The position numbers and the translations under genes are program-made. A stretch of DNA of 57,375 bases from a virus (lineage: Duplodnaviria; Caudoviricetes), in IMG/VR virus record IMGVR_UViG_3300025671_000076, positions 1 to 57,375 of that record; one strand, written 5' to 3'. Below, in pieces: positions 1 to 40,600 of this stretch (its first letter is position 1; each line of letters opens with the position of its first letter). The notes under the pieces are model-generated. The model made no database searches. It saw only the letters and a list, made by a program, of their open reading frames with translations, and was not told the DNA's origin.

Positions 1-75
1 TTGCTCAATGTATGCTTTACAAACTTGTTTTTGCCCTTTGTCTAATTGAGGGACTTTTTTTGTTTGTGTCGTCAT
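1..75 (-). CDS. Early hypothetical protein, truncated by the window edge (MTTQTKKVPQLDKGQKQVCKAYIEQ...)
   Basis: Read manually: ATG at 75 preceded by AAAGGA; frame open to position 1. Confidence 0.6.
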   Translation of the reverse strand, partial: MTTQTKKVPQLDKGQKQVCKAYIEQ

Positions 76-372
76 TTGTTTTTTGTCCTTTGTTAAGTGT
101 TAATCTATAAAATATAGATTTAAAAAAGAGTTTAGTTATTTTTTAATTAATTGCAAATCTTTTATTTTTTTTATTTTTACTAAAAAAAATTCTTCCATAG
201 AGCCACGCACATTAAGATTTAGACCTCAATGCGACCTAGACATCATGGCAAATTTTTTAAATTTCCAACGAACTGAACTGGCGAAATTTTCCCAGCTGGA
301 ACTGGGTGCCAGTCCTTTACGATGGAATAACGAGGAATGCAAACGTAACGACAACGAGAACGAGGAACAGCA

Positions 373-726
373 TTAGAGATAAAACCCTCTCTTCAGTCTT
401 GTGACCTCAGCATGAATTTCTGTTAGCTTTCTTTCATCGCATCTATCGATGAACTGCTTGATCTCTTCTCTTTTCTTTTTGTTAGCTTCGTACTTTCTAG
501 CTTTGTTTTCATCTTGTACTTGGAAATGTGTTTCATTTTGCTCTGCCATTTTATTTTCCTCCTTTAAATAATAATTTAATTCATTGGCTGTTCGAAAAGT
601 TTTCCATTTAAAATTCCATCCTTTAGAATTTCTGATTACCGGAATCCATTCGTTGTTTTGATAGTCTTTGACTCTGTAGTCTCTGTTACTATAGTTTTCC
701 ATTTGTAATGTTGAGTATCTAGTCAT
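373..726 (-). CDS. Early hypothetical protein
   Basis: 117-aa ORF with AAAGGAG SD and an upstream sigma70-like promoter. Confidence 0.75.
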   Translation of the reverse strand: MTRYSTLQMENYSNRDYRVKDYQNNEWIPVIRNSKGWNFKWKTFRTANELNYYLKEENKMAEQNETHFQVQDENKARKYEANKKKREEIKQFIDRCDERKLTEIHAEVTRLKRGFYL

Positions 727-751
727 TTAATAGCTCCTTTGTTTTTTTAAA

Positions 752-779
752 TTAATATCACATCTGTCTCCTGCTGCAA
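752..779 (-). promoter_or_regulatory. Sigma70-like early promoter
   Basis: TTGCAG-N16-TATTAA with TG extension, upstream of the SD of 373..726. Confidence 0.55.
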
Positions 780-1085
780 GAAAAAAATTAAGAAAGGTAG
801 AACTTATGTACGCTGCCTTCAGGATCGCTGCTGGCCAGCTCTCTAGGAAAAGCACAGCAACCACGCCATTGTTCTTCAACGAGAAACGAGATTTGCTTTA
901 GAAACTCTACCTTCTCCTGAACTGGCGTCCCAGCCCCTAAGTCAAAGAAAGAAAGGAAAACCATTGACAACCAACGAGAAACGAGGAAAGGTAATGTGAA
1001 CTGCACCAGCTTCCGTTCCCAGCTGGTGTCTGGCGCCAGTCCCTGAACTGAAAAGTACGAAGGCTTCTACGAGAAACGAGAACGA

Positions 1086-1167
1086 GGATTAGGTGAGAGG
1101 TCTAAACAGGAGCTACTCTGACAAAAGACCTCTCGCCAAATCCTGTTGCCGTCGTTAGACGGCAACA
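1086..1167 (-). ncRNA. Candidate two-hairpin small RNA / 3' UTR element with an anti-SD loop
   Basis: 10-bp hairpin at 1144-1167 plus a long stem 1086-1103/1126-1143 enclosing AGUAGCUCCUGUUU. Confidence 0.5.
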
Positions 1168-1178
1168 AGTAAATTTAA

Positions 1179-1562
1179 TTACCAACTACAGTCGTAACCA
1201 ATCTCCTTACCATTCTGTAATTGTTCCTTACACCACTTGATAAATTCTTCATCTTGGGCTTTGTACTCTTTCACCTGTTCCTCTTGAAACTGTTGTCCCC
1301 AAAAGAAACCATCAGGTGCAAAGCAATCATAATAGCCACTCTTGACCTGTTCCTCTAGCCTCTTGACTATTTCCTCAGTGATTTTTACACCACCCTCGCC
1401 ACCGTTAAAACCAAGATCGAAAGAACCGTCGCCCTTTCTATCTTTCTGTTTTTCAAACTCACCTGCGAAGAACTGTTGTAGTCTTGCGTGTTTTCTCCAA
1501 TAAAAGTTTTCATGAACTTCGCCATTGCTATCACGAAAACCTGCGTATTGATCTAGTCCCAT
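1179..1562 (-). CDS. Conserved phage early hypothetical protein (MGLDQY...YWRKH family)
   Basis: Recognisable MGLDQY, YWRKH, GFFWG and terminal Y-x-x-SW motifs; strong SD AAAGGAG. Confidence 0.85.
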   Translation of the reverse strand: MGLDQYAGFRDSNGEVHENFYWRKHARLQQFFAGEFEKQKDRKGDGSFDLGFNGGEGGVKITEEIVKRLEEQVKSGYYDCFAPDGFFWGQQFQEEQVKEYKAQDEEFIKWCKEQLQNGKEIGYDCSW

Positions 1563-1595
1563 TTTTAACTCCTTTGTTATTTGTTAAACATCACA

Positions 1596-1623
1596 GTCTT
1601 ATCATACATGGGATAATTGTCAA
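1596..1623 (-). promoter_or_regulatory. Sigma70-like early promoter with TATCCCA box
   Basis: TTGACA-N16-TAAGAC with TG extension; TATCCCA next to the -35. Confidence 0.65.
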
Positions 1624-1802
1624 ACAAAAAAATTCACCGATCCATAAAGCATTTCCTGAACTGGTGCTGGCGCCAGGCCAGACAGGTAGTTCTCTGTATC
1701 CTGGAACATCATCACGAGAAAAACAACGAGGATCCAGAGAGCGTATCCAGTTAACTCAGGATAAAGAATGGCACAGAATATGAGGATAAAGATGGCAAAC
1801 AT
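1620..1802 (-). CDS. Small membrane protein (60 aa, starts MFAIFILIF)
   Basis: ATG at 1802 after CAGGAG SD; two hydrophobic stretches; overlaps repeat motifs. Confidence 0.5.
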   Translation of the reverse strand: MFAIFILIFCAILYPELTGYALWILVVFLVMMFQDTENYLSGLAPAPVQEMLYGSVNFFV

Positions 1803-1804
1803 AT

Positions 1805-2116
1805 CTACTCCTGCTTCGAACCAGCTGCCAGCTCCTGAGCTGCAGACTCTACGGCAAACCATGAGGTCCAATTCTTAAACGAGGCAGGCGAGAAAACGTC
1901 CTTGGGAAACAAGGACCCAACGCTAACTCCTGCAGCGTCAGCGGCTTCATCTAGATATTTCCAGATCTCTTCTTCATGTTCATTATAAAACGAGGTAGTG
2001 TCATCGTAATAAATTAAACCGGCGACTCCGCCTTCACATCCATGTTGAGCTATATCTGAAATGAGGAACTGCTCATGCAGTTCCCCTTCCTTTAACCATT
2101 CTTTTATCTTCCCCAT
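1805..2116 (-). CDS. Acidic early protein (HGCxGG...LIYYxDT family), possible DNA-mimic/anti-restriction protein
   Basis: Very D/E-rich 103-aa protein in the early region; motif recalled from phage early genes. Confidence 0.75.
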   Translation of the reverse strand: MGKIKEWLKEGELHEQFLISDIAQHGCEGGVAGLIYYDDTTSFYNEHEEEIWKYLDEAADAAGVSVGSLFPKDVFSPASFKNWTSWFAVESAAQELAAGSKQE

Positions 2117-2385
2117 GTGATTCCCTCCACATCTGTCTTAAACTTAACAATGTCACGTAGCTTTAAGTGTCGAAGTTTCTGTGGCTCGTTGTCGAGTAGC
2201 CCTTGACCCTTAAGTCGGCTGCCACTAGTAATGCGTACCCACATCTTTTCCGATTGCTTTTTGTCTTTAAACCATACGTAGACGTACTCACGCATCTTCG
2301 GCATTCGCTCTAGCTGTTTAATTTTGAAATATGTTTCTTTGCCGTGTTCGGGGCATGTGTACACAATGTTACTATCTTTTACCAT
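2104..2385 (-). CDS. DUF2314/YegJ-like hypothetical protein
   Basis: E-x-MWV...G-x-LDNEP...D-x-V-x-F pattern. Confidence 0.65.
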   Translation of the reverse strand: MVKDSNIVYTCPEHGKETYFKIKQLERMPKMREYVYVWFKDKKQSEKMWVRITSGSRLKGQGLLDNEPQKLRHLKLRDIVKFKTDVEGITWGR

Positions 2386-2471
2386 GATATCACCCCCGTT
2401 AAAGTTAGAATGACAAAGACCACCGAAAGCACTGTGGCTTCGGGTATTAAGTTGATTATTTTATTTTTCAT
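2379..2471 (-). CDS. 30-aa single-TM peptide (MKNKIINLIPEATVLSVVFVILTLTGVISW)
   Basis: Manual translation; AAAGGAG SD; stop overlaps the start of the next gene. Confidence 0.65.
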   Translation of the reverse strand: MKNKIINLIPEATVLSVVFVILTLTGVISW

Positions 2472-2489
2472 TTTTAACTCCTTTGTTGT

Positions 2490-2575
2490 TGCCGAGCAGT
2501 GAGAGAGAACATAACTAGCATACTAGTATATCGATAGCCCCTCATCTCACCCTAGGCTACGCTCGTTGCTCGACA
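2490..2575 (-). ncRNA. Structured 5' leader or small RNA
   Basis: Nested stems UGUCGAGCA/UGCUCGGCA, GUGAGA-GAG/CUCUCUCAC and ACUAG/CUAGU; G-U pairs favour the minus strand; starts just after a promoter. Confidence 0.5.
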
Positions 2576-2580
2576 TTACA

Positions 2581-2609
2581 TAGATAAGACCTCGTGGGAT
2601 AAATGTCAA
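2581..2609 (-). promoter_or_regulatory. Sigma70-like early promoter with TATCCCA box
   Basis: TTGACA-N17-TATCTA; TATCCCA next to the -35. Confidence 0.6.
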
Positions 2610-2904
2610 GAACTTTTTTTAAAAATTTTTTAGTAAGATCAGATGATCCTGAGCTGGCACGCCAGCTGGGGTCTGGTACCAGCTGCTACGCTGCAGGGGG
2701 GTTGGGCTAAACGAGAAACGAGAAAACGAGAAACGAGGATTTGAAACGAGAAAACGGCCACCGAAGATTAATCCGGTGGCCGACAAAGAGGCTAAAAATA
2801 CTAAGTGAGGTTTCGCGTACAATCTCCTCATCCGGATCGGGAGCGCCAGCTTTTTCTCACAAAGACTTCTTGCAGTTACGCTTCTATCACAACGAGGATC
2901 CGTG

Positions 2905-3321
2905 TCAAGAACTATTTTTCACCAGCTGCCTCCTGAGCTCTGGCCAGGCCAGGGACGGTACGGGGTCCGGTGTTTGGTAAACGAGAACGAGGGAACGAGA
3001 AAACGAGGATGGGGACGAGGGATCCACGCCACCGGACACTCTGTAAAGTTTCAATAGCCTCTGCAAGAGGGTCTGATGCAGAATAAATATATTACCACCA
3101 TGACGTTGATATTCATAAGCCCAAGCCATTTGGAATTTGGACAGTATCGGAAACTTGTCTTCTGTTGACTTCAATTCAATCCAAAAAGACTTAGAATCTA
3201 TACACCCATGAACATCTGGAATACCTTGTACTGTTGAGCTTTCTATCCTTGTAAAATGTGCGTTTTTTATATGTTGTTTAACTCTTTGAAAGAGTAAAGA
3301 TTCGCGTTTTTTTAAAGCCAT
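2905..3321 (-). CDS. VRR-NUC / Holliday-junction-resolvase-like PD-(D/E)XK nuclease
   Basis: RIES...GIPDV...WIELK...S-x-FQ-x-AW motifs. Confidence 0.85.
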   Translation of the reverse strand: MALKKRESLLFQRVKQHIKNAHFTRIESSTVQGIPDVHGCIDSKSFWIELKSTEDKFPILSKFQMAWAYEYQRHGGNIFILHQTLLQRLLKLYRVSGGVDPSSPSSFSRSLVLVYQTPDPVPSLAWPELRRQLVKNSS

Positions 3322-3325
3322 TTAT

Positions 3326-3493
3326 TTAAGACAAGGTACACCCAAAAAAGACACCCTGAACAGTAAGATTTTCACGTAAAACATCACACACTTCAAACAA
3401 ATCCATTCCTTTTTCTACAGGAAGTTCAGATAATAATTCTTTTGTTACAGGAATTAAATAATACATTTCGTTTAAGAAAACAATGTAGTTCAT
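3326..3493 (-). CDS. Hypothetical protein (55 aa, MNYIVFLNEMYYLIPVTKE...)
   Basis: Manual translation; TAATG coupling to the upstream gene; fills the gap. Confidence 0.6.
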   Translation of the reverse strand: MNYIVFLNEMYYLIPVTKELLSELPVEKGMDLFEVCDVLRENLTVQGVFFGCTLS

Positions 3494-3816
3494 TAATGAA
3501 TTACTTTTATGGACTGTATGACTGATGTTGGAATTATAGTTGTGTTACCAATATTCTCAAAAGTTTCATCTGTTTTAGATTTGATGTAATCAGTAAATAT
3601 TCTAGTCACTCCACCTTTCTGAGATACAAGATAACCTTTAGATACACAAGTAGGTAAGTTAGATTTCAATAGAGCTTTAGTGTCAGACCACCCTGCATCA
3701 CCTTCGATATCAAACCAATGTATTTCTACAAAAGGATAGTCAGCAATATTTTTACCGAGCTTTTTAGTATTTAAAGGAATTGTTTTTCTATAAATTTTTG
3801 GTTTTCTTTTTGCCAT
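3493..3816 (-). CDS. Conserved marine phage hypothetical protein
   Basis: VEI-x-W-x-DI-x-GD-x-GW...SKG-x-L...IP pattern; GAGG SD. Confidence 0.8.
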   Translation of the reverse strand: MAKRKPKIYRKTIPLNTKKLGKNIADYPFVEIHWFDIEGDAGWSDTKALLKSNLPTCVSKGYLVSQKGGVTRIFTDYIKSKTDETFENIGNTTIIPTSVIQSIKVIH

Positions 3817-3907
3817 TTTTAACCTCTACCTTTACAGTTCCAGTTGATACAAGCAGATGTGAGTTGTGTATTTGATTGAACACAGTAACCCATTGTCCAC
3901 TATTCAC
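3788..3907 (-). CDS. Possible small hypothetical protein (GTG start)
   Basis: Open frame bridging the terS stop and the next gene. Confidence 0.3.
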   Translation of the reverse strand: MNSGQWVTVFNQIHNSHLLVSTGTVKVEVKNGKKKTKNL

Positions 3908-4397
3908 TAACTTCTTCTGGTGTAACGTTAATGATATTCTTCGCTTCACCGATTTTTGATTCGAGTTCTGCAAAGCGTTTCTCAAGTTGTTCACGAGACA
4001 TACCCTCCAAAGAATTGTTAGTAATTTCTTTTTTATCAACGTACATTCCTGCTAGTTGTCCTGAACGATACTCAGCATTAATTGCTGATGCGTATTGTTT
4101 TGATTTAGCAGCATCGTCACCGAATTTCTCGAATCTTTTAAATGACCTCAACGGATTAGCATATTTGTTTTTAGCTTCCGCAATTTTCTTTTCTAGATAT
4201 CTTACAACATGTGGATTTCTATTTGGATTAGTTAATTTAGATGCAATCGTATGTGGATCTTTAGCTACATAGCCTGCTCTCTTAGCAGCTTCTGTTTTGC
4301 TGATTAGTCCATATTCAGCAACATAAATATCTACAAACTTCCTTTGTTTAGGAGTCAAATCGTGCATCGTTTTCAACACGTTAGGTTTTCCAGCCAT
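3900..4397 (-). CDS. terS: Terminase small subunit
   Basis: LTPKQRKFV...TEAAKRAGY...ASKL HTH signature and C-terminal G-x-Y-x-DKKEI; start moved to ATG 4397 after GAGGA. Confidence 0.85.
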   Translation of the reverse strand: MAGKPNVLKTMHDLTPKQRKFVDIYVAEYGLISKTEAAKRAGYVAKDPHTIASKLTNPNRNPHVVRYLEKKIAEAKNKYANPLRSFKRFEKFGDDAAKSKQYASAINAEYRSGQLAGMYVDKKEITNNSLEGMSREQLEKRFAELESKIGEAKNIINVTPEEVSE

Positions 4398-4473
4398 GTT
4401 CTCAAATCCTCTATAAGATATTTTTAACTTAATTAAGACTGTATCCGAATTTAGGTATCTTGTCCACAAGAGT

Positions 4474-4702
4474 GACTAGTGTCACAAATGTCAGTGTATG
4501 TCACAAAATAAAAGTGTTTGTGACATCAAATAAGTAAGTAATATCAATGTAAATAGATTAAAAACAGTGTAGTGTCACAAGTGTCAGACATTCTGGGAGT
4601 ATGATTAGTGGTAAAGAGGTAAAAATATCTTATATAGAATCGTTGAAAATAAAAAATACAGTAAAATCAACAAAAAGTAGTGTCACAAAATGTGACACTA
4701 CT
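4474..4702. repeat. TGTCACA iteron cluster with 12-bp palindrome; candidate replication origin or pac region
   Basis: TGTCACA/TGTGACA at 4480, 4499, 4519, 4573, 4681 and 4691; AT-rich core 4526-4565; AGTAGTGTCACA-aaa-TGTGACACTACT at 4676-4702; non-coding. Confidence 0.75.
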
Positions 4703-4714
4703 CTAATTTAGGCC

Positions 4715-5053
4715 TCATTGTGTCGGATAATACCGTTGGCCGTCGACATAATGATAATAATTACCTGTATTGTCATAATAGGTAATGTCTTCTGGCTCTA
4801 TGTAATTTCTAGGTTTTACATGCCACAGTTTCATGCAGTTTAGAACGGTTCTAGATCTAGAACCGCCTAGCATATTCAATAAATCACTAACACTTAACTG
4901 TTTTAGCTCATACAAATTTAAACTAGGTAAATTAGCTTCTAATGTATCTAGTATCGCATTGGATTGAGCCATATCAAAAAAATGTTTAGCATCACGCAGA
5001 AACACTTTTTCGTGCTGAAGATCAACTTCAGACTTTTCTATTTTTTTGTTCAT
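4715..5053 (-). CDS. Hypothetical protein
   Basis: ORF; likely ATG start at 5053. Confidence 0.6.
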   Translation of the reverse strand: MNKKIEKSEVDLQHEKVFLRDAKHFFDMAQSNAILDTLEANLPSLNLYELKQLSVSDLLNMLGGSRSRTVLNCMKLWHVKPRNYIEPEDITYYDNTGNYYHYVDGQRYYPTQ

Positions 5054-5153
5054 ATAAATTATCTCTAATTTCACCAGATAAGTTGTCAATAATATTGTTT
5101 ATAGGACAATCTTTCATTGACTTGTTTGTTTAAACCTATAAAAATAGATATAA

Positions 5154-5969
5154 ATGATTATCAGAGATGAAAAACCAGCATTAAGAATACTATCACTAGG
5201 TGCAGGCGTTCAATCTAGCACTATGGCTTTGATGGCAGACGCTGGAGAGTTTGGAGTAAAACCTGATGCAGCAATCTTCGCTGATACGGGTTGGGAACCT
5301 AAACCAGTTCTAGATCATTTACACTATTTAAAATCAAAATTAAGTTACCCTGTATACATTACTAAAAAAGGTGACCTGGACAAAGATATCTTGAAAGCTT
5401 TGGCTCCTGGAGGCAATCAGTTCGCTTCAGCTCCGTTTTATACTTTGAATGAAAAAGGTAAAAAAGGAATGGGCCGAAGACAGTGTACAAGAGAATACAA
5501 AATAACGCCTATTGCTAAAAAAATTAGAGAAATTATGGGCTATAAACCTAGACAGAAAATGAAACCAACTCAGTGGGTTGAAGTGTGGATTGGTATATCT
5601 ATGGATGAAGTTCAACGTATGAAACCGTCTAGATTTTGGTGGCAAGAAAATAAATGGCCTTTGTTAGATAAAAAAATGACAAGAGACGATTGTCTAAAAT
5701 GGTATGAAGGTAAAGGATTTAACGTACCAGTTAAGTCAGCTTGTATTGGTTGTCCGTTTCATGATGATAGATTTTGGATTGACATGAGAGATAATAGACC
5801 TGATGAATTTGCAGAGGCGGTGTATTTCGATAAAGAGATGAGAAAACATAATCCTAAAATTAAAAATTTCGTACATAGATCCTGTGTGCCTTTAGATGAA
5901 GTTAAATTTAAAAATGATGATCAGGGTGATTTATTTAACCAAGAGTGCGAAGGTATGTGTGGACTGTAG
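5154..5969 (+). CDS. PAPS-reductase/DndC-like PP-loop protein with Cys motifs (putative Fe-S)
   Basis: LSLGAGVQSS PP-loop, FADTGWE, RQCT...KI-x-PI, IGIS-x-DE-x-x-R, KSACIGCPFH and terminal CEGMC. Confidence 0.85.
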   Translation: MIIRDEKPALRILSLGAGVQSSTMALMADAGEFGVKPDAAIFADTGWEPKPVLDHLHYLKSKLSYPVYITKKGDLDKDILKALAPGGNQFASAPFYTLNEKGKKGMGRRQCTREYKITPIAKKIREIMGYKPRQKMKPTQWVEVWIGISMDEVQRMKPSRFWWQENKWPLLDKKMTRDDCLKWYEGKGFNVPVKSACIGCPFHDDRFWIDMRDNRPDEFAEAVYFDKEMRKHNPKIKNFVHRSCVPLDEVKFKNDDQGDLFNQECEGMCGL

Positions 5970-6110
5970 ACTGGTGTCCTGTGGCCGTTGTTCCTTATCC
6001 TTTTTCTTTTCTTCAGTATAATCTTTACATCGATCCGTTTCATAGTCCTTACGTTTTCTTAACTTCTCTAAATATTTTTCGAACCGAAGTATATCGTCAA
6101 GTGTCATCAT
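5931..6110 (-). CDS. Possible small leaderless hypothetical protein (59 aa)
   Basis: ATG at 6110, 7 nt below TTTACC-N17-TATTCT. Confidence 0.4.
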   Translation of the reverse strand: MMTLDDILRFEKYLEKLRKRKDYETDRCKDYTEEKKKDKEQRPQDTSLQSTHTFALLVK

Positions 6111-6975: not shown

Positions 6976-7318
6976 AAGATCTCTCCATTTTTTTATCGAT
7001 TAGCTTATCTATTACTTGTCTCTTCCTCACTCTTAAATATCTTCGCTTAACATAGTTCAATATTTTCTGTGCCATTTCATATTGTCCATGTCTGGTAATT
7101 GTATTTTTCCAACTTGGTCTAACTTTAGCTCGGTTAAAACAAAATGCGTCTCGTTGAGAAGTTTGTTCTAATCGAAGTTCAATACCTTTACGTTCATTTG
7201 GATACATTACCCAAGGTGTTTCAAAATAAGTATCTCGTATTTCTGGATGAACGTTAGTACGATCTAACCACTTCGCTATTCTTTTTGCGTTTTGTATTTT
7301 TAAAAATTTTTTAATCAT
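6941..7318 (-). CDS. Basic hypothetical protein
   Basis: ORF; probable start ATG 7318 overlapping the previous stop. Confidence 0.65.
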   Translation of the reverse strand: MIKKFLKIQNAKRIAKWLDRTNVHPEIRDTYFETPWVMYPNERKGIELRLEQTSQRDAFCFNRAKVRPSWKNTITRHGQYEMAQKILNYVKRRYLRVRKRQVIDKLIDKKMERSYEQKNHKKSTG

Positions 7319-7823
7319 AACGTTTTGCTCTCTCTCGTTTATGCCTTTTTTCTCTTCGATAATCAATATAATTTTGTTGTCTTTTTATAACATGATCATT
7401 GATATATACGAACCAAGGCATTTCTTGTTTAAAAAATCCTTCGTAAACTGAAATATAACCTTTTATTTCTATATAGGATAATTCATACGGACAACTATCT
7501 CCATTAGCATTTACAGGTGGACTAAATTTTTTAATCCATCGTTTTTCATAATGTTGTCTAATTCTAAAATCTTTATCTTTAACTTGCATGATTCTCATGT
7601 ATGCAAATATAGGACCTATACCTTTAGGTCTTTTACCACTTTTTAAAAAAGCTTTATAATAATGATCCAAAACTCTACATAAAGGATTTATACTTTCACC
7701 AATGTAAAGTAATTTATAGTCCTTATCGAATAAAAAATATAAGCCAGGCAAGTTATGTTTAACAAAATTTACCTGGCTTACAGTATCAGAAAATGGGATT
7801 AGTTTAGATTTATTTACTACCAT
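7311..7823 (-). CDS. GIY-YIG nuclease-like protein
   Basis: PGLYFLF...LLYIGES...RV-x-x-H...E-x-x-WI...P-x-x-N. Confidence 0.75.
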   Translation of the reverse strand: MVVNKSKLIPFSDTVSQVNFVKHNLPGLYFLFDKDYKLLYIGESINPLCRVLDHYYKAFLKSGKRPKGIGPIFAYMRIMQVKDKDFRIRQHYEKRWIKKFSPPVNANGDSCPYELSYIEIKGYISVYEGFFKQEMPWFVYINDHVIKRQQNYIDYRREKRHKRERAKRYD

Positions 7824-8013
7824 TTTTCTTTAGCAATTGAGAAATATATTTTTCAGCAGGGATACCTTTCTTCTTAGCTTGATATCCTGCATAATCTTTT
7901 ACCAGTTTTGAAATCATTCTCGCTGGGTTTCTATCTTTCTCATCGCATAAAGCAGTTAGTAAAGTATGCGTTTCTTTTTTTACTGCAACTGATTTCCATT
8001 TATTTATATCCAT
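7810..8013 (-). CDS. Ribbon-helix-helix-like DNA-binding protein
   Basis: KWKSVAV strand followed by two helices; 67 aa. Confidence 0.65.
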   Translation of the reverse strand: MDINKWKSVAVKKETHTLLTALCDEKDRNPARMISKLVKDYAGYQAKKKGIPAEKYISQLLKKNGSK

Positions 8014-8197
8014 TTTTCTTTAACTCCTCTTTCATTTGTAATTTATTTTTAATTCTTGGATTAGGTAAAACAATATAGAATCTTTCAAAGTAAGGATTGT
8101 TGTCACTAAAATCCCAACCTCTTTTTTTACTTAATCTATGATGCGCTGCGTATTGTCTTTCCTTCCAATCCATTTCGCTTATTTTAATTATGCTCAT
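8000..8197 (-). CDS. Hypothetical protein
   Basis: ORF with GGAG SD, coupled to its neighbours. Confidence 0.7.
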   Translation of the reverse strand: MSIIKISEMDWKERQYAAHHRLSKKRGWDFSDNNPYFERFYIVLPNPRIKNKLQMKEELKKNGYK

Positions 8198-39911: not shown

Positions 39912-40600
39912 TATACTCCATCTCCAAAGTAAGTTTGTGGTGAAATATATAAAGAAGTTCTAGAACCATCTTCATCTAAAGCTCTTTTCATTTCATCTTC
40001 ATAAGCTAATTTTAACATTTGTGTTCTATCTGCAGCTTTTAAAAACGATAGATAATAAGCTAGACCTGCTACCATACAAGGTAAAAATCTATAAGGTGCA
40101 TCAGGAGTATTTGTATATCCTCCAGCATCTTCAATTCTAGCAATATAATAATATTTTAAATAAGTGTAAGTAGATGCATCAGGTGTTTGATACAAATATA
40201 TTTGTGGATTAATTTGTCTATCTACATAATACTGTGACGGTTGTCCTGTGGCACCTTTATTTGGTAAAGCTGCATAGTTAGATCTATCTGTTTTAGTTAA
40301 AGATACATCCGTTATCGACGGCCCCGTGCCAGCTCCTGTAGATATGTAAGCTTCTAATACATCACTACAATCACTTGGAGTTGCGTATTGTTCTGTTCCT
40401 GATGTTAATACTTGTTCATAATTTTTTACCTTCCATAAATGTAATCCTCTGTTACCCCATTCAGATAACAATAAATTTAAATTTCTTCTAGCTCTTTTTA
40501 AATCATAACCTGAGTCTGTAGATAAACCACATCTTTCATATGCTTCATCTATAATTTCATCTATATTTAAATTAAATGATGTAGTTCCTGAGCTAGCCAT
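39911..40600 (-). CDS. Head-tail adaptor / tail tubular protein A-like
   Basis: SGT-x-x-F-x-L...EAYERCG...W-x-NRG-x-x-LW...RFLPC-x-x-AGLAYY. Confidence 0.8.
   Translation of the reverse strand: MASSGTTSFNLNIDEIIDEAYERCGLSTDSGYDLKRARRNLNLLLSEWGNRGLHLWKVKNYEQVLTSGTEQYATPSDCSDVLEAYISTGAGTGPSITDVSLTKTDRSNYAALPNKGATGQPSQYYVDRQINPQIYLYQTPDASTYTYLKYYYIARIEDAGGYTNTPDAPYRFLPCMVAGLAYYLSFLKAADRTQMLKLAYEDEMKRALDEDGSRTSLYISPQTYFGDGV

Follow-up and report, generated by a model that had tools for sequence, protein, structure and literature searches.

In the available text of the two reports that describe them, the promoter early stem-loop elements (PeSLs) of T4-type phages join a stem-loop that acts as terminator or attenuator to a strong sigma-70-like promoter whose upstream part is rich in A/T, are located around small non-essential genes and mediate exchange by recombination (PMC2839356, PMC4122927). 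The locus analyzed here lies in a 57,375-nt stretch of viral DNA (IMG/VR record IMGVR_UViG_3300025671_000076, classed as linear and estimated to be 95% complete), referred to at its full length as the window, which carries within its first 3 kb a zone of small gene cassettes whose borders are occupied by repeated units, each made up of a tandem array of the word AACGAG and a GC-rich block. Independent promoter-gene-terminator units that stand between core genes and deviate in base composition are also known from lambdoid phages as morons. The zone resembles PeSLs, as far as the two reports describe them, in its repeated intergenic cassettes of promoter-like site and predicted stem-loop, its small unknown genes, its location in a variable region and the homology that it may offer for modular exchange, and it resembles morons in its cassettes and in a GC content of 41-43% versus about 32%. 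Tandem hexamer arrays or alternating 90-nt units, however, do not figure in the available descriptions of PeSLs, which place these elements in T4-type myoviruses, and morons lack a shared oriented repeat code at their borders. In the zone, the stem-loops are formed by AGCTGG/CCAGCT words and lie between terS and terL of a phage related to Pelagibacter phage HTVC023P, and promoters and terminators are predicted from sequence. Since this phage is not a T4-type myovirus, the zone would be PeSL-like in its working and not a member of the PeSLs. With a probability of roughly 0.4, we favor the reading that the units are composite border modules, in which a terminator or insulator is joined to a promoter in a PeSL-like manner and is complemented by an oriented word array that would be read on a single strand; relative to PeSLs, this oriented array is the new ingredient.

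The hexamer AACGAG occurs 29 times in the window when both strands are counted, a number that none of 100 dinucleotide shuffles of the whole window reached (mean 13.2, standard deviation 3.7). All 22 plus-strand instances fall within 329-3007, and seven instances, two of them inside the region, lie on the minus strand. In the remainder of the window (3101-57375) the plus strand carries no instance, against 2.5-2.8 expected under Markov models, which indicates strong local enrichment without significant avoidance of the word elsewhere. The motif CCTGARCT of the GC-rich blocks was matched eight times in the window, always on the plus strand and six times within 916-2939; shuffled sequences contained 2.4 matches on average, with 2 of 100 reaching eight, and the two matches at 40587 and 40930 have no adjoining arrays. 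The repeats are thus real, locally enriched and confined to this part of the window, as the original prediction, made from the letters of the stretch alone, had proposed, and the density of both motifs exceeds that of composition-matched shuffles to the extent given; the estimate of about ten units has to be lowered to nine, with arrays of one to five tandem words. The gap of 40-60 nt that had been placed between the two parts of a unit as a spacer corresponds to the GC block itself, which adjoins arrays on both sides and so produces a continuous alternation of arrays and GC blocks with a unit of ~90 nt; units 2-4 of the window are spaced by 95 and 95 nt. The coupling of the two parts is non-random. 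Across 55 non-redundant zones (110 kb), ACGAG words are found 40-90 nt after the start of CCTGARCT and none at 0-20 or 100-110 nt, and the word autocorrelation has peaks near 90, 180 and 270 nt, separated by troughs at 40-65 and 125-145 nt. A CRISPR array was rejected as an explanation, as the zone contains variable-length arrays of words in place of identical 28-37-nt repeats with unique spacers.

All genes of the zone are encoded on the minus strand, so that AACGAG reads CTCGTT on the mRNA strand, and this orientation is nearly absolute: in the 55 zones, 916 AACGAG words oppose the sense strand and 26 lie on the other strand. The words of the GC blocks are oriented as well, CCAGCT (262 versus 55) being followed by CTCCTG, TCCTGA and AGCTCC, and they make inverted pairs of the type GAGCTGG...CCAGCTC. 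Within arrays, the spacing of neighboring words varies from 5 to 9 nt, with counts of 51 (5 nt), 219 (6 nt), 111 (7 nt), 55 (8 nt) and 12 (9 nt). Words restricted to one strand and variably spaced are most likely read word by word on a single strand.

The bipartite pattern was recovered in 95 stretches of IMG/VR contigs, 86 of which carry at least nine AACGAG words on one strand. These 86 contigs share a VRR-NUC homologue (81), TerS (70) and the 127-aa cassette protein (68), which identifies a single group of phages with a single syntenic zone; the array-bearing phages are one clade of uncultured relatives of HTVC023P. Cellular genomes (596 Gb) yielded 49 single scattered matches to the bipartite pattern, near a rough chance estimate, and none with several units, and runs of three tandem words, found there in at least 120 stretches from unrelated taxa, are uninformative. 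Each of six complete zones (2427-2963 nt) holds 18-23 AACGAG words on the array strand and 0-2 on the other. Conservation, computed as the mean pairwise identity across 11 aligned, non-redundant orthologous regions, is 0.89 for array 9, compared with 0.84 for the adjoining VRR-NUC coding sequence, 0.78 for the promoter-like site P2, 0.68 for array 7, 0.50-0.71 for the GC blocks and 0.48-0.54 for neighboring non-coding DNA, and the arrays are the best-conserved non-coding stretches. As had been noticed at the outset, units also overlap open reading frames (ORFs): ORF 2905-3321, the tail of which reads ...DPSSPSSFSRSLVLV..., runs through array 9 and GC block 9, and its matches to known families are limited to residues 4-83 (PHROG) and 29-82 (Pfam VRR_NUC, a match at E 0.0084 that stays under the curated threshold). 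The accompanying suggestion that selection acts on the nucleotide words and not on the ORFs is borne out by the higher identity of array 9 relative to coding DNA, by the strand bias and by the stable number of words per zone.

Conservation of the layout extends to lineages that use other words. Among 80 TerS relatives, arrays of AACGAG were found in 17, of GCGTGG in 10, of AACGTG in 3 and of AACGGG in 1, and 49 have none; wherever arrays occur, they begin 0.9-1.4 kb downstream of terS and on the opposite strand. The word core common to these lineages is RCGNG, position weights return AACGAG with 0.70-0.81 per flanking position, and, because AACGTG arrays also hold AACGAG words, the fifth word position may be free. 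Sister lineages such as L149 (opposite strand, 2800-5530), L165 (2317-4150) and L113 show the same layout with words of the types (C/G)AACGTG x4, GCGTGG x4 and AACGGG. In several of these cases a sequence complementary to the word stands beside the array, where a hairpin arm could pair with any tandem copy. Arrays of the GCGTGG class contain no T on the sense strand, and one relative (L056) carries five tandem units of ~83 nt. The cassettes themselves recur in part, families being present in 4-6 of the six complete zones (DUF2314-like gene, 4/6; 117-aa gene, 5/6). The cultured phage HTVC023P (L180) lacks AACGAG arrays; its terS-terL interval contains different repeats, and 36-nt repeats, three in tandem, stand beside its terS, while TTTCGTTGTTATTCTCAA... 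is present three times in the interval (7295-7487 and 4556-4972). Literature searches on HTVC023P and on intergenic repeats of pelagiphages, with term look-ups in the main texts, without supplements, of PMC9599517 and PMC12753301, yielded no description of the repeats reported here.

These distribution data bear on whether the units constitute a repeat family without a dedicated function, non-autonomous or slippage-prone, homogenized by recombination and providing at most homology for cassette exchange, which we consider quite unlikely. The obvious comparison is with repetitive extragenic palindromic sequences and bacterial interspersed mosaic elements (REP/BIME), chromosomal GC-rich palindromic units that alternate with linkers outside genes or after gene ends and are linked to RAYT proteins. 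The zone shares with them palindromic GC units alternating in tandem with linker motifs. It is confined to an interval of small non-essential genes, shows tandem amplification (the 95-nt repeats of the window and the ~83-nt units of L056), extends copies into ORF ends, has word families that are specific to lineages and is absent from 49 of the 80 TerS relatives, all of which a repeat family would explain, and a step in sequencing depth described below (530 versus 276) fits a module common to two genotypes. Against such a family stand the conservation of orthologous arrays, which exceeds that of flanking non-coding DNA and, for array 9, of neighboring coding DNA, the stable number of 18-23 words in six of six zones and the near-absolute orientation. 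Elements of the REP/BIME type were rejected, given that the window has no match to the Y1 transposase family (PF01797) and that cellular genomes give single matches only, and a phage attachment site with core and arm sites was rejected for want of a tyrosine integrase (no PF00589 match in the window at E up to 0.1).

The position of the units relative to genes is what ties them to transcription. In the window, each of the nine units comes after a cassette end and ahead of the next promoter-like site on the sense strand; no unit separates a promoter from its gene. Read along the sense strand, the VRR-NUC-like gene is followed by unit 9, P1, a stretch of ~125 nt, the hairpin at 2782-2755, unit 7 and P2; the operon 2471-1805 comes next, with units 6 and 5 and the promoter-like site at 1623; ORF 1179-1562, two hairpins (directly followed by array 4), units 4, 3 and 2, the promoter-like site at 779, ORF 373-726 and unit 1 complete the series. 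Every unit thus separates the end of a cassette, often marked by a hairpin, from the next sigma-70-like promoter, which associates the units with the borders of transcription units. The sense-strand promoter-like sites match the consensus TTGACA-N16/17-TAnnnT at 2609, 1623 and 2908 and read TTGCAG...TATTAA at 779, with A/T tracts upstream. Three of them have the form TTGACA-N3-ATCC(C/T)... and belong to a promoter class with a conserved spacer, TTGACA-N3-ATCCCAT-N7-TATCTA, which within the window is confined to the repeat zone (2575-2609, 1590-1623 and 2878-2908, all minus) and was also seen in the relatives L100-L110, L149 and L165. Promoter type, arrays and higher GC are present together and absent together, and neither ATCCCAT-type promoters nor an elevated GC content were seen in the three array-less relatives examined. 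In comparison with PeSLs, the zone has, by consensus match, a sigma-70-like promoter with an A/T tract and, as predicted folds, stable stem-loops within the cassettes at 2782-2755 and 1165-1085. The T-rich tail of the former hairpin (GTTTTCTCGTT) is at the same time the first word of array 7, and the orthologous hairpins of relatives likewise run directly into arrays.

Such proximity to promoters would also be expected of double-strand operator arrays, in which a DNA-binding regulator of the phage or its host recognizes AACGAG upstream of ATCCCAT-type promoters and switches the cassettes off or on, a reading that we regard as unlikely. A unit stands directly upstream of each of the four promoter-like sites, one word falls in the spacer between -35 and -10 of P1, the words are strongly conserved in lineage-specific variants, and promoter type, arrays and higher GC are jointly missing from array-less relatives. 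A precedent for asymmetric sites in fixed orientation to transcription is found in the stoperators of mycobacteriophages, which, in the available text of their description, are asymmetric sites bound by the immunity repressor and distributed genome-wide in temperate phages (PMC9283540). The 5-9 nt spacing inside one array is not helix-phased, however, and fits word-by-word reading of a single strand better than a phased double-strand operator; tandem runs of up to five units with a single promoter at their end, and a fifth word position that may be free, also argue against a regulator of this kind. Stoperators are 13 bp long. The zone shares with them, as far as that description goes, many asymmetric sites tied to transcription, but its words, of 6 nt each, form tandem arrays within 2.7 kb, and the window yielded neither a repressor nor an integrase. 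Sites of the stoperator type were rejected on these grounds, together with the lack of a link between the arrays and the ribbon-helix-helix (RHH) protein encoded at 7810..8013. This protein had been put forward as a possible binder, a role that is unlikely because 28 of the 49 TerS loci without arrays encode the protein as well and because its N-terminal strand motif, KWKSVAV/I, is near-identical in all word classes. A GIY-YIG domain protein encoded beside it (7311-7823, minus; E 5.8e-6) may be a homing endonuclease.

A search for other partner proteins by co-occurrence returned four genes present in 3/3 array-bearing and 0/2 array-less whole genomes. They encode a DUF2314-like protein (2104-2385, minus; 66-76% identity, above that of TerS), an acidic 55-aa ORF (3326-3493, minus), a basic ORF of 65 aa that overlaps the RHH gene at its start (8000-8197, minus) and a PAPS-reductase-like protein on the opposite strand (5154-5969, plus; 75-89% identity). 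Look-ups of these genes in family databases and in the Atlas returned no function, and the genes at 2104-2385, 3326-3493 and 8000-8197 are carried by 10, 6 and 2 of the 86 array-bearing contigs, an absence that speaks weakly against a regulator among them because the contigs are short.

The favored reading, in which the units are border modules, can be laid out in the order of the elements. The units would form the borders of small, separately promoted gene cassettes of the moron kind that fill the interval from terS/VRR-NUC to terL, and on the gene strand such a border would consist of a stop codon, a hairpin, a pyrimidine-rich (CTCGTT[T])n array, a GC block with AGCTGG/CCAGCT-type inverted words able to form hairpins, an A/T tract, a sigma-70-like promoter, a ribosome-binding site and the next gene. 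Of the alternatives considered, this reading agrees best with the observed placement of units at cassette borders, their orientation relative to transcription, the hairpins that run into arrays, the conservation of words whose spacing is free, their joint occurrence with one promoter class and the location just ahead of terL and the late genes. Whereas the layout, the strand bias, the periodicity and the conservation, together with synteny and the variants of other lineages, are observed, we infer that promoters and hairpins would be active and that the words would be read on RNA or single-stranded DNA, one at a time and on one strand, by an agent moving along the DNA. Foremost among possible readers would be the transcription complex, or else a factor for termination or antitermination that acts on nascent sense RNA or on the non-template strand, with the GC hairpins as putative pause or release sites. 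Some 20 words in series may gate transcription coming from the side of the replication genes and terS, ahead of its passage into terL and the structural genes, the units may insulate the cassettes from one another, and the repeated borders may provide homology for cassette exchange. The sense strand of the arrays is 83% pyrimidine with a C/G ratio of 2.2, nearly lacks A and is unstructured. For the 154 segments that separate arrays, predicted folding on either strand is moderately stronger than that of shuffled sequences (mean z -1.1 to -1.2); in the AACGAG class, the composition of the arrays, followed by GC hairpins, would suit Rho loading sites. Short RNA words read by ring proteins are known from the GAG/UAG repeats of TRAP, the UAG repeats of HutP and Rho loading sites, and the zone has in common with them several short words, flexible spacers, an unstructured strand and a location next to hairpins at which termination would be decided. 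In contrast, CUCGUU/AACGAG matches none of these known words, the arrays of the zone stand after genes and not in 5' leaders, and no such protein was found. A more specific version, which must be considered doubtful, would make the arrays multivalent sites for a single-strand word reader, either a ring-type RNA-binding terminator or antiterminator resembling TRAP, HutP or Rho, or a host helicase-nuclease of the kind that responds to Chi, so that ~20 words would act as a switchable gate or shield before the late genes and the RCGNG variants would track the specificity of the reader.

Several observations weigh against the border-module reading. Whole units fold no better than shuffles on either strand (z -2.9 to +2.1), only two minus-strand terminator-like sites in the region adjoin arrays (2782-2755 and a weak one at 1916-1898, at array 6), and most of the nine units have no T-run. 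Helices adjoin the arrays equally closely on both sides, so that the terminator phase is not discriminated. In the AACGTG class, as read from the printed arrays, the sense words are CACGTT(G), without the pyrimidine-C step and with a C/G ratio near 1, so that a plain Rho-loading role fails for some lineages; furthermore, conservation at the level of the word is stricter than composition-based signals require. No partner protein emerged, and no gene of the zone is common to all array-bearing genomes. The absence of arrays from 49 of 80 TerS relatives and from HTVC023P implies that they are not needed for the basic life cycle. A last point concerns the strand of a hairpin that in itself counts in favor of the reading. 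With the conserved loop AACAAAGAGG and compensatory stem changes in 22 distinct versions, it occurs inside many units of relatives and was not found in that form in the window; it folds better on the sense strand in 19 of the 22 versions, a count biased by the U-rich loop. G-U pairs in this hairpin likewise favor the sense strand (24 versus 5), mostly in loop-proximal positions beside the U-rich loop, which makes them a hint only. Examples of the hairpin (L016:600-670, L033:3580-3640) have the loop sequence (T)AACAAAGAGG(A/G/T)AAA and the stems GGCCACCGT/ACGGTGGCC, GGCTACATT/AATGTAGCC and GACCCAGCT/ACTGGGTC.

The same loop nearly equals the ribosome-binding site of the sense genes (AACAAAGGAG) and lies on the opposite strand, a resemblance that would suit a plus-strand, antisense sponge RNA. 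Its many words rich in purine (AACGAGGA), like the loop AACAAAGAGG, would resemble ribosome-binding sites or protein sites of the GGA type and would sequester 30S subunits or a regulator that binds RNA. Sponge RNAs have a layout of hairpin, linker and hairpin that the units resemble, and eight of 25 words in the window read ACGAGGA, with 383 of the 916 words in the 55 zones continuing with G. This explanation is nevertheless very unlikely, as a plus-strand promoter was not found and most words lack GGA. Rfam gave no match at gathering score across the window, and its four matches in 1-3600 (E 0.98-4.8), to models of eukaryotic snoRNAs and a Listeria sRNA, are far under the cut-offs; no tRNA was found in the window. 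On the sense strand, the segment 2755-2908 comprises P1, ~125 nt without a convincing ORF and a strong terminator-like hairpin, and its body holds motifs conserved among relatives (CCGTCCATGGAGAG, GCGAAACCTC; fold z -1.66). It may represent a small RNA or a short leader, recalling the layout of late promoter, short transcript and terminator. Sequences downstream of the conserved P2 differ among relatives, most of which carry, directly after P2, a 24-aa hydrophobic ORF different from that of the window.

The genomic setting was reconstructed from relatives, in which window position 1 is connected to 57364 through ~2.3 kb that the window does not contain. The missing piece (L102:11931-14285) encodes a 137-aa protein, a 99-aa protein and a 488-aa TerL (Terminase_6C, E 3e-14), so that the record broke across terL, and position 1 is an assembly break and not a genome end; a contig from a public DNA run extends 564 nt past it. 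In a relative classed as 100% complete, the ends of the record overlap by 77 nt and the zone is 7.4 kb away from them. On the minus strand, the genes follow the order AEP primase, UvrD-like helicase, family A DNA polymerase, small genes, terS, two small genes, the VRR-NUC-like gene, the repeat zone, terL and large, presumably structural ORFs, so that the next genes directly downstream of the zone, in the same orientation, are terL and the structural genes. The original prediction had located the repeats near a genome end and had expected comparable arrays at the left ends of relatives; the arrays are conserved there, but they are internal to the genome, between terS/VRR-NUC and terL, and not terminal. 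Its packaging and ejection readings have thereby lost their premise, and nothing was found in their support, leaving the interpretation as a whole partly supported.

Words read by a translocase at or near a DNA end, either in terminase loading at a pac site, as speed marks for ejection or as Chi-like signals toward RecBCD/AddAB entering from the terS side, appear improbable in this setting. The pac site of P1 consists of hexamer clusters, arrays of a heptamer lie beside the terminal repeats of T7, and Chi acts in one orientation only. Short asymmetric words in one orientation, clustered near packaging genes, are common to these systems and to the zone, which belongs to the packaging module, at 0.9-1.4 kb downstream of terS, and strict orientation (916 versus 26, as for Chi), multiplicity and free spacing suit a tracking enzyme that recognizes each word with some probability; for a Chi-like signal, words on the plus strand mean that the nuclease would enter from the right, which is the terS side. 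The zone differs in that its units are tied to promoters and hairpins and that no DNA end is known nearby, the apparent end of the window being the assembly break. A pac site needs a single locus, whereas nine are spread here across 2.7 kb and keep in step with promoters and hairpins, and nine dispersed arrays are atypical of it; the ~90-nt alternation with GC hairpins and the tie to cassette borders would be left unexplained, and avoidance of the word elsewhere in the window is not significant.

Among 50,697 phage records, the DNA of the window matches only three Pelagibacter phages, around terS and its neighbor. Its GC content is 44-45% in 1001-3000, compared with 25-41% in the remaining 1-kb bins. 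In the public DNA run X1, unitig depth is ~530-570 over 1-3262 (372 over 748-1311) and 240-290 over 3233-6000; unitig 1284-3262 has a depth of 530, twice that of 3386-5297 (276), and the unitig break at 3233-3262 lies inside the VRR-NUC gene. Because this break implies a branch in the assembly graph, the step in depth fits a module common to two genotypes better than a terminal repeat. The repeat zone may therefore be common to two co-occurring genotypes as a result of module exchange, a long terminal repeat being less likely. Fourteen DNA runs (of runs X1-X20) contain at least 90% of sampled words of 200-4600, and all are labeled as freshwater metagenomes, in contrast with the marine origin of the nearest cultured relatives, the Pelagibacter phages. 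Contigs from three RNA-library runs cover 390-725, 1201-1667, 1840-2560, 2871-3021 and 3149-4410 and leave 801-1200 and 2601-2800 uncovered; these libraries are of low depth and strandless, and may contain carried-over DNA, so that the gaps carry no inference. Coordinates of the units and of neighboring features are listed in Table 1.

Table 1. Repeat units, predicted hairpins, promoter-like sites and genes of the zone and its flank, in window coordinates.
Feature	Position	Strand	Details
GC block 1	270..315	+	CTGAACTGG, CCAGCTGG, CTGGGTGCCAG
Array 1	329..366	+	AACGAG at 329, 353 and 359; on the sense strand begins just past the stop of ORF 373-726
Cassette gene	373..726	-	117 aa, no family
Promoter-like site	752..779	-	TTGCAG-N16-TATTAA; upstream of ORF 373-726
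GC block 2	820..845	+	
Array 2	878..891	+	AACGAG A AACGAG
GC block 3	914..937	+	CCTGAACTGG...
Array 3	973..988	+	
GC block 4	1000..1052	+	Hairpin CACCAGCT...AGCTGGTG; CTGGCGCCAG, CCTGAACTG
Array 4	1069..1088	+	Units 2-4 in tandem, 95-nt spacing
Two hairpins	1085..1165	-	Arms 1085-1103/1126-1144, and 1141-1165; just past the stop of ORF 1179-1562; z -3.5 to -5.9
Cassette gene	1179..1562	-	127 aa, no family; in 68/86 array-bearing contigs
Promoter-like site	1590..1623	-	TTGACA-att-ATCCCAT-...-TAAGAC; upstream of ORF 1179-1562
GC block 5	1653..1685	+	CCTGAACTGGTGCTGGCGCCAGG
Array 5	1714..1732	+	
Cassette genes	1805..2385	-	DUF2314-like (2104-2385) and DUF7222 (1805-2116)
GC block 6	1808..1846	+	Within the 3' end of the DUF7222 ORF
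Array 6	1878..1897	+	AACGAG, GCGAG
Hydrophobic ORF	2382-2471	-	30 aa, MKNKIINLIPEATVLSVVFVILTLTGVISW; ahead of the DUF2314-like gene, directly after P2
Promoter-like site P2	2575..2609	-	TTGACA-ttt-ATCCCAC-gaggtct-TATCTA; consensus match only; 0.78 identity in relatives
GC block 7	2646..2706	+	CCTGAGCTGG CACG CCAGCTGG, CTGGTACCAG
Array 7	2710..2755	+	Five AACGAG
Hairpin	2755..2782	-	11 bp, GC-rich, then GTTTTCTCGTT on the sense strand; intrinsic-terminator-like
GC block 8 (weak)	2836..2850	+	
Promoter-like site P1	2878..2908	-	TTGACA-N16-TAGAAG; ~125 nt upstream of hairpin 2782-2755
Single word	2891..2898	+	AACGAGGA; in the -35/-10 spacer of P1
VRR-NUC-like gene	2905..3321	-	Array zone begins just past its conserved domain
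GC block 9	2920..2975	+	
Array 9	2980..3021	+	Nearly invariant (11 relatives); inverted repeat GTCCGGTG...CACCGGAC around it; overlaps the tail of the VRR-NUC ORF
Terminase small subunit (terS)	3900..4469	-	Upstream flank of the zone

The arrays explain spurious ORFs and odd C-terminal tails among the gene calls of the zone, and they provide a simple sequence marker by which it can be located in metagenomes. To our knowledge, gene regulation in pelagiphages of the HTVC023P type is essentially undescribed. Where the replication and terS genes yield to terL and the structural genes, the repeats label a conserved regulatory zone that has a promoter class of its own. Classical regulators are few in phages of the streamlined bacteria of marine and fresh waters, and the words would offer a handle on the switch from early to late expression in these phages if a factor for termination or antitermination reads them. 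If the units serve mainly for exchange, the PeSL principle of regulatory cassettes acting as recombination linkers would extend to an unrelated group of phages.

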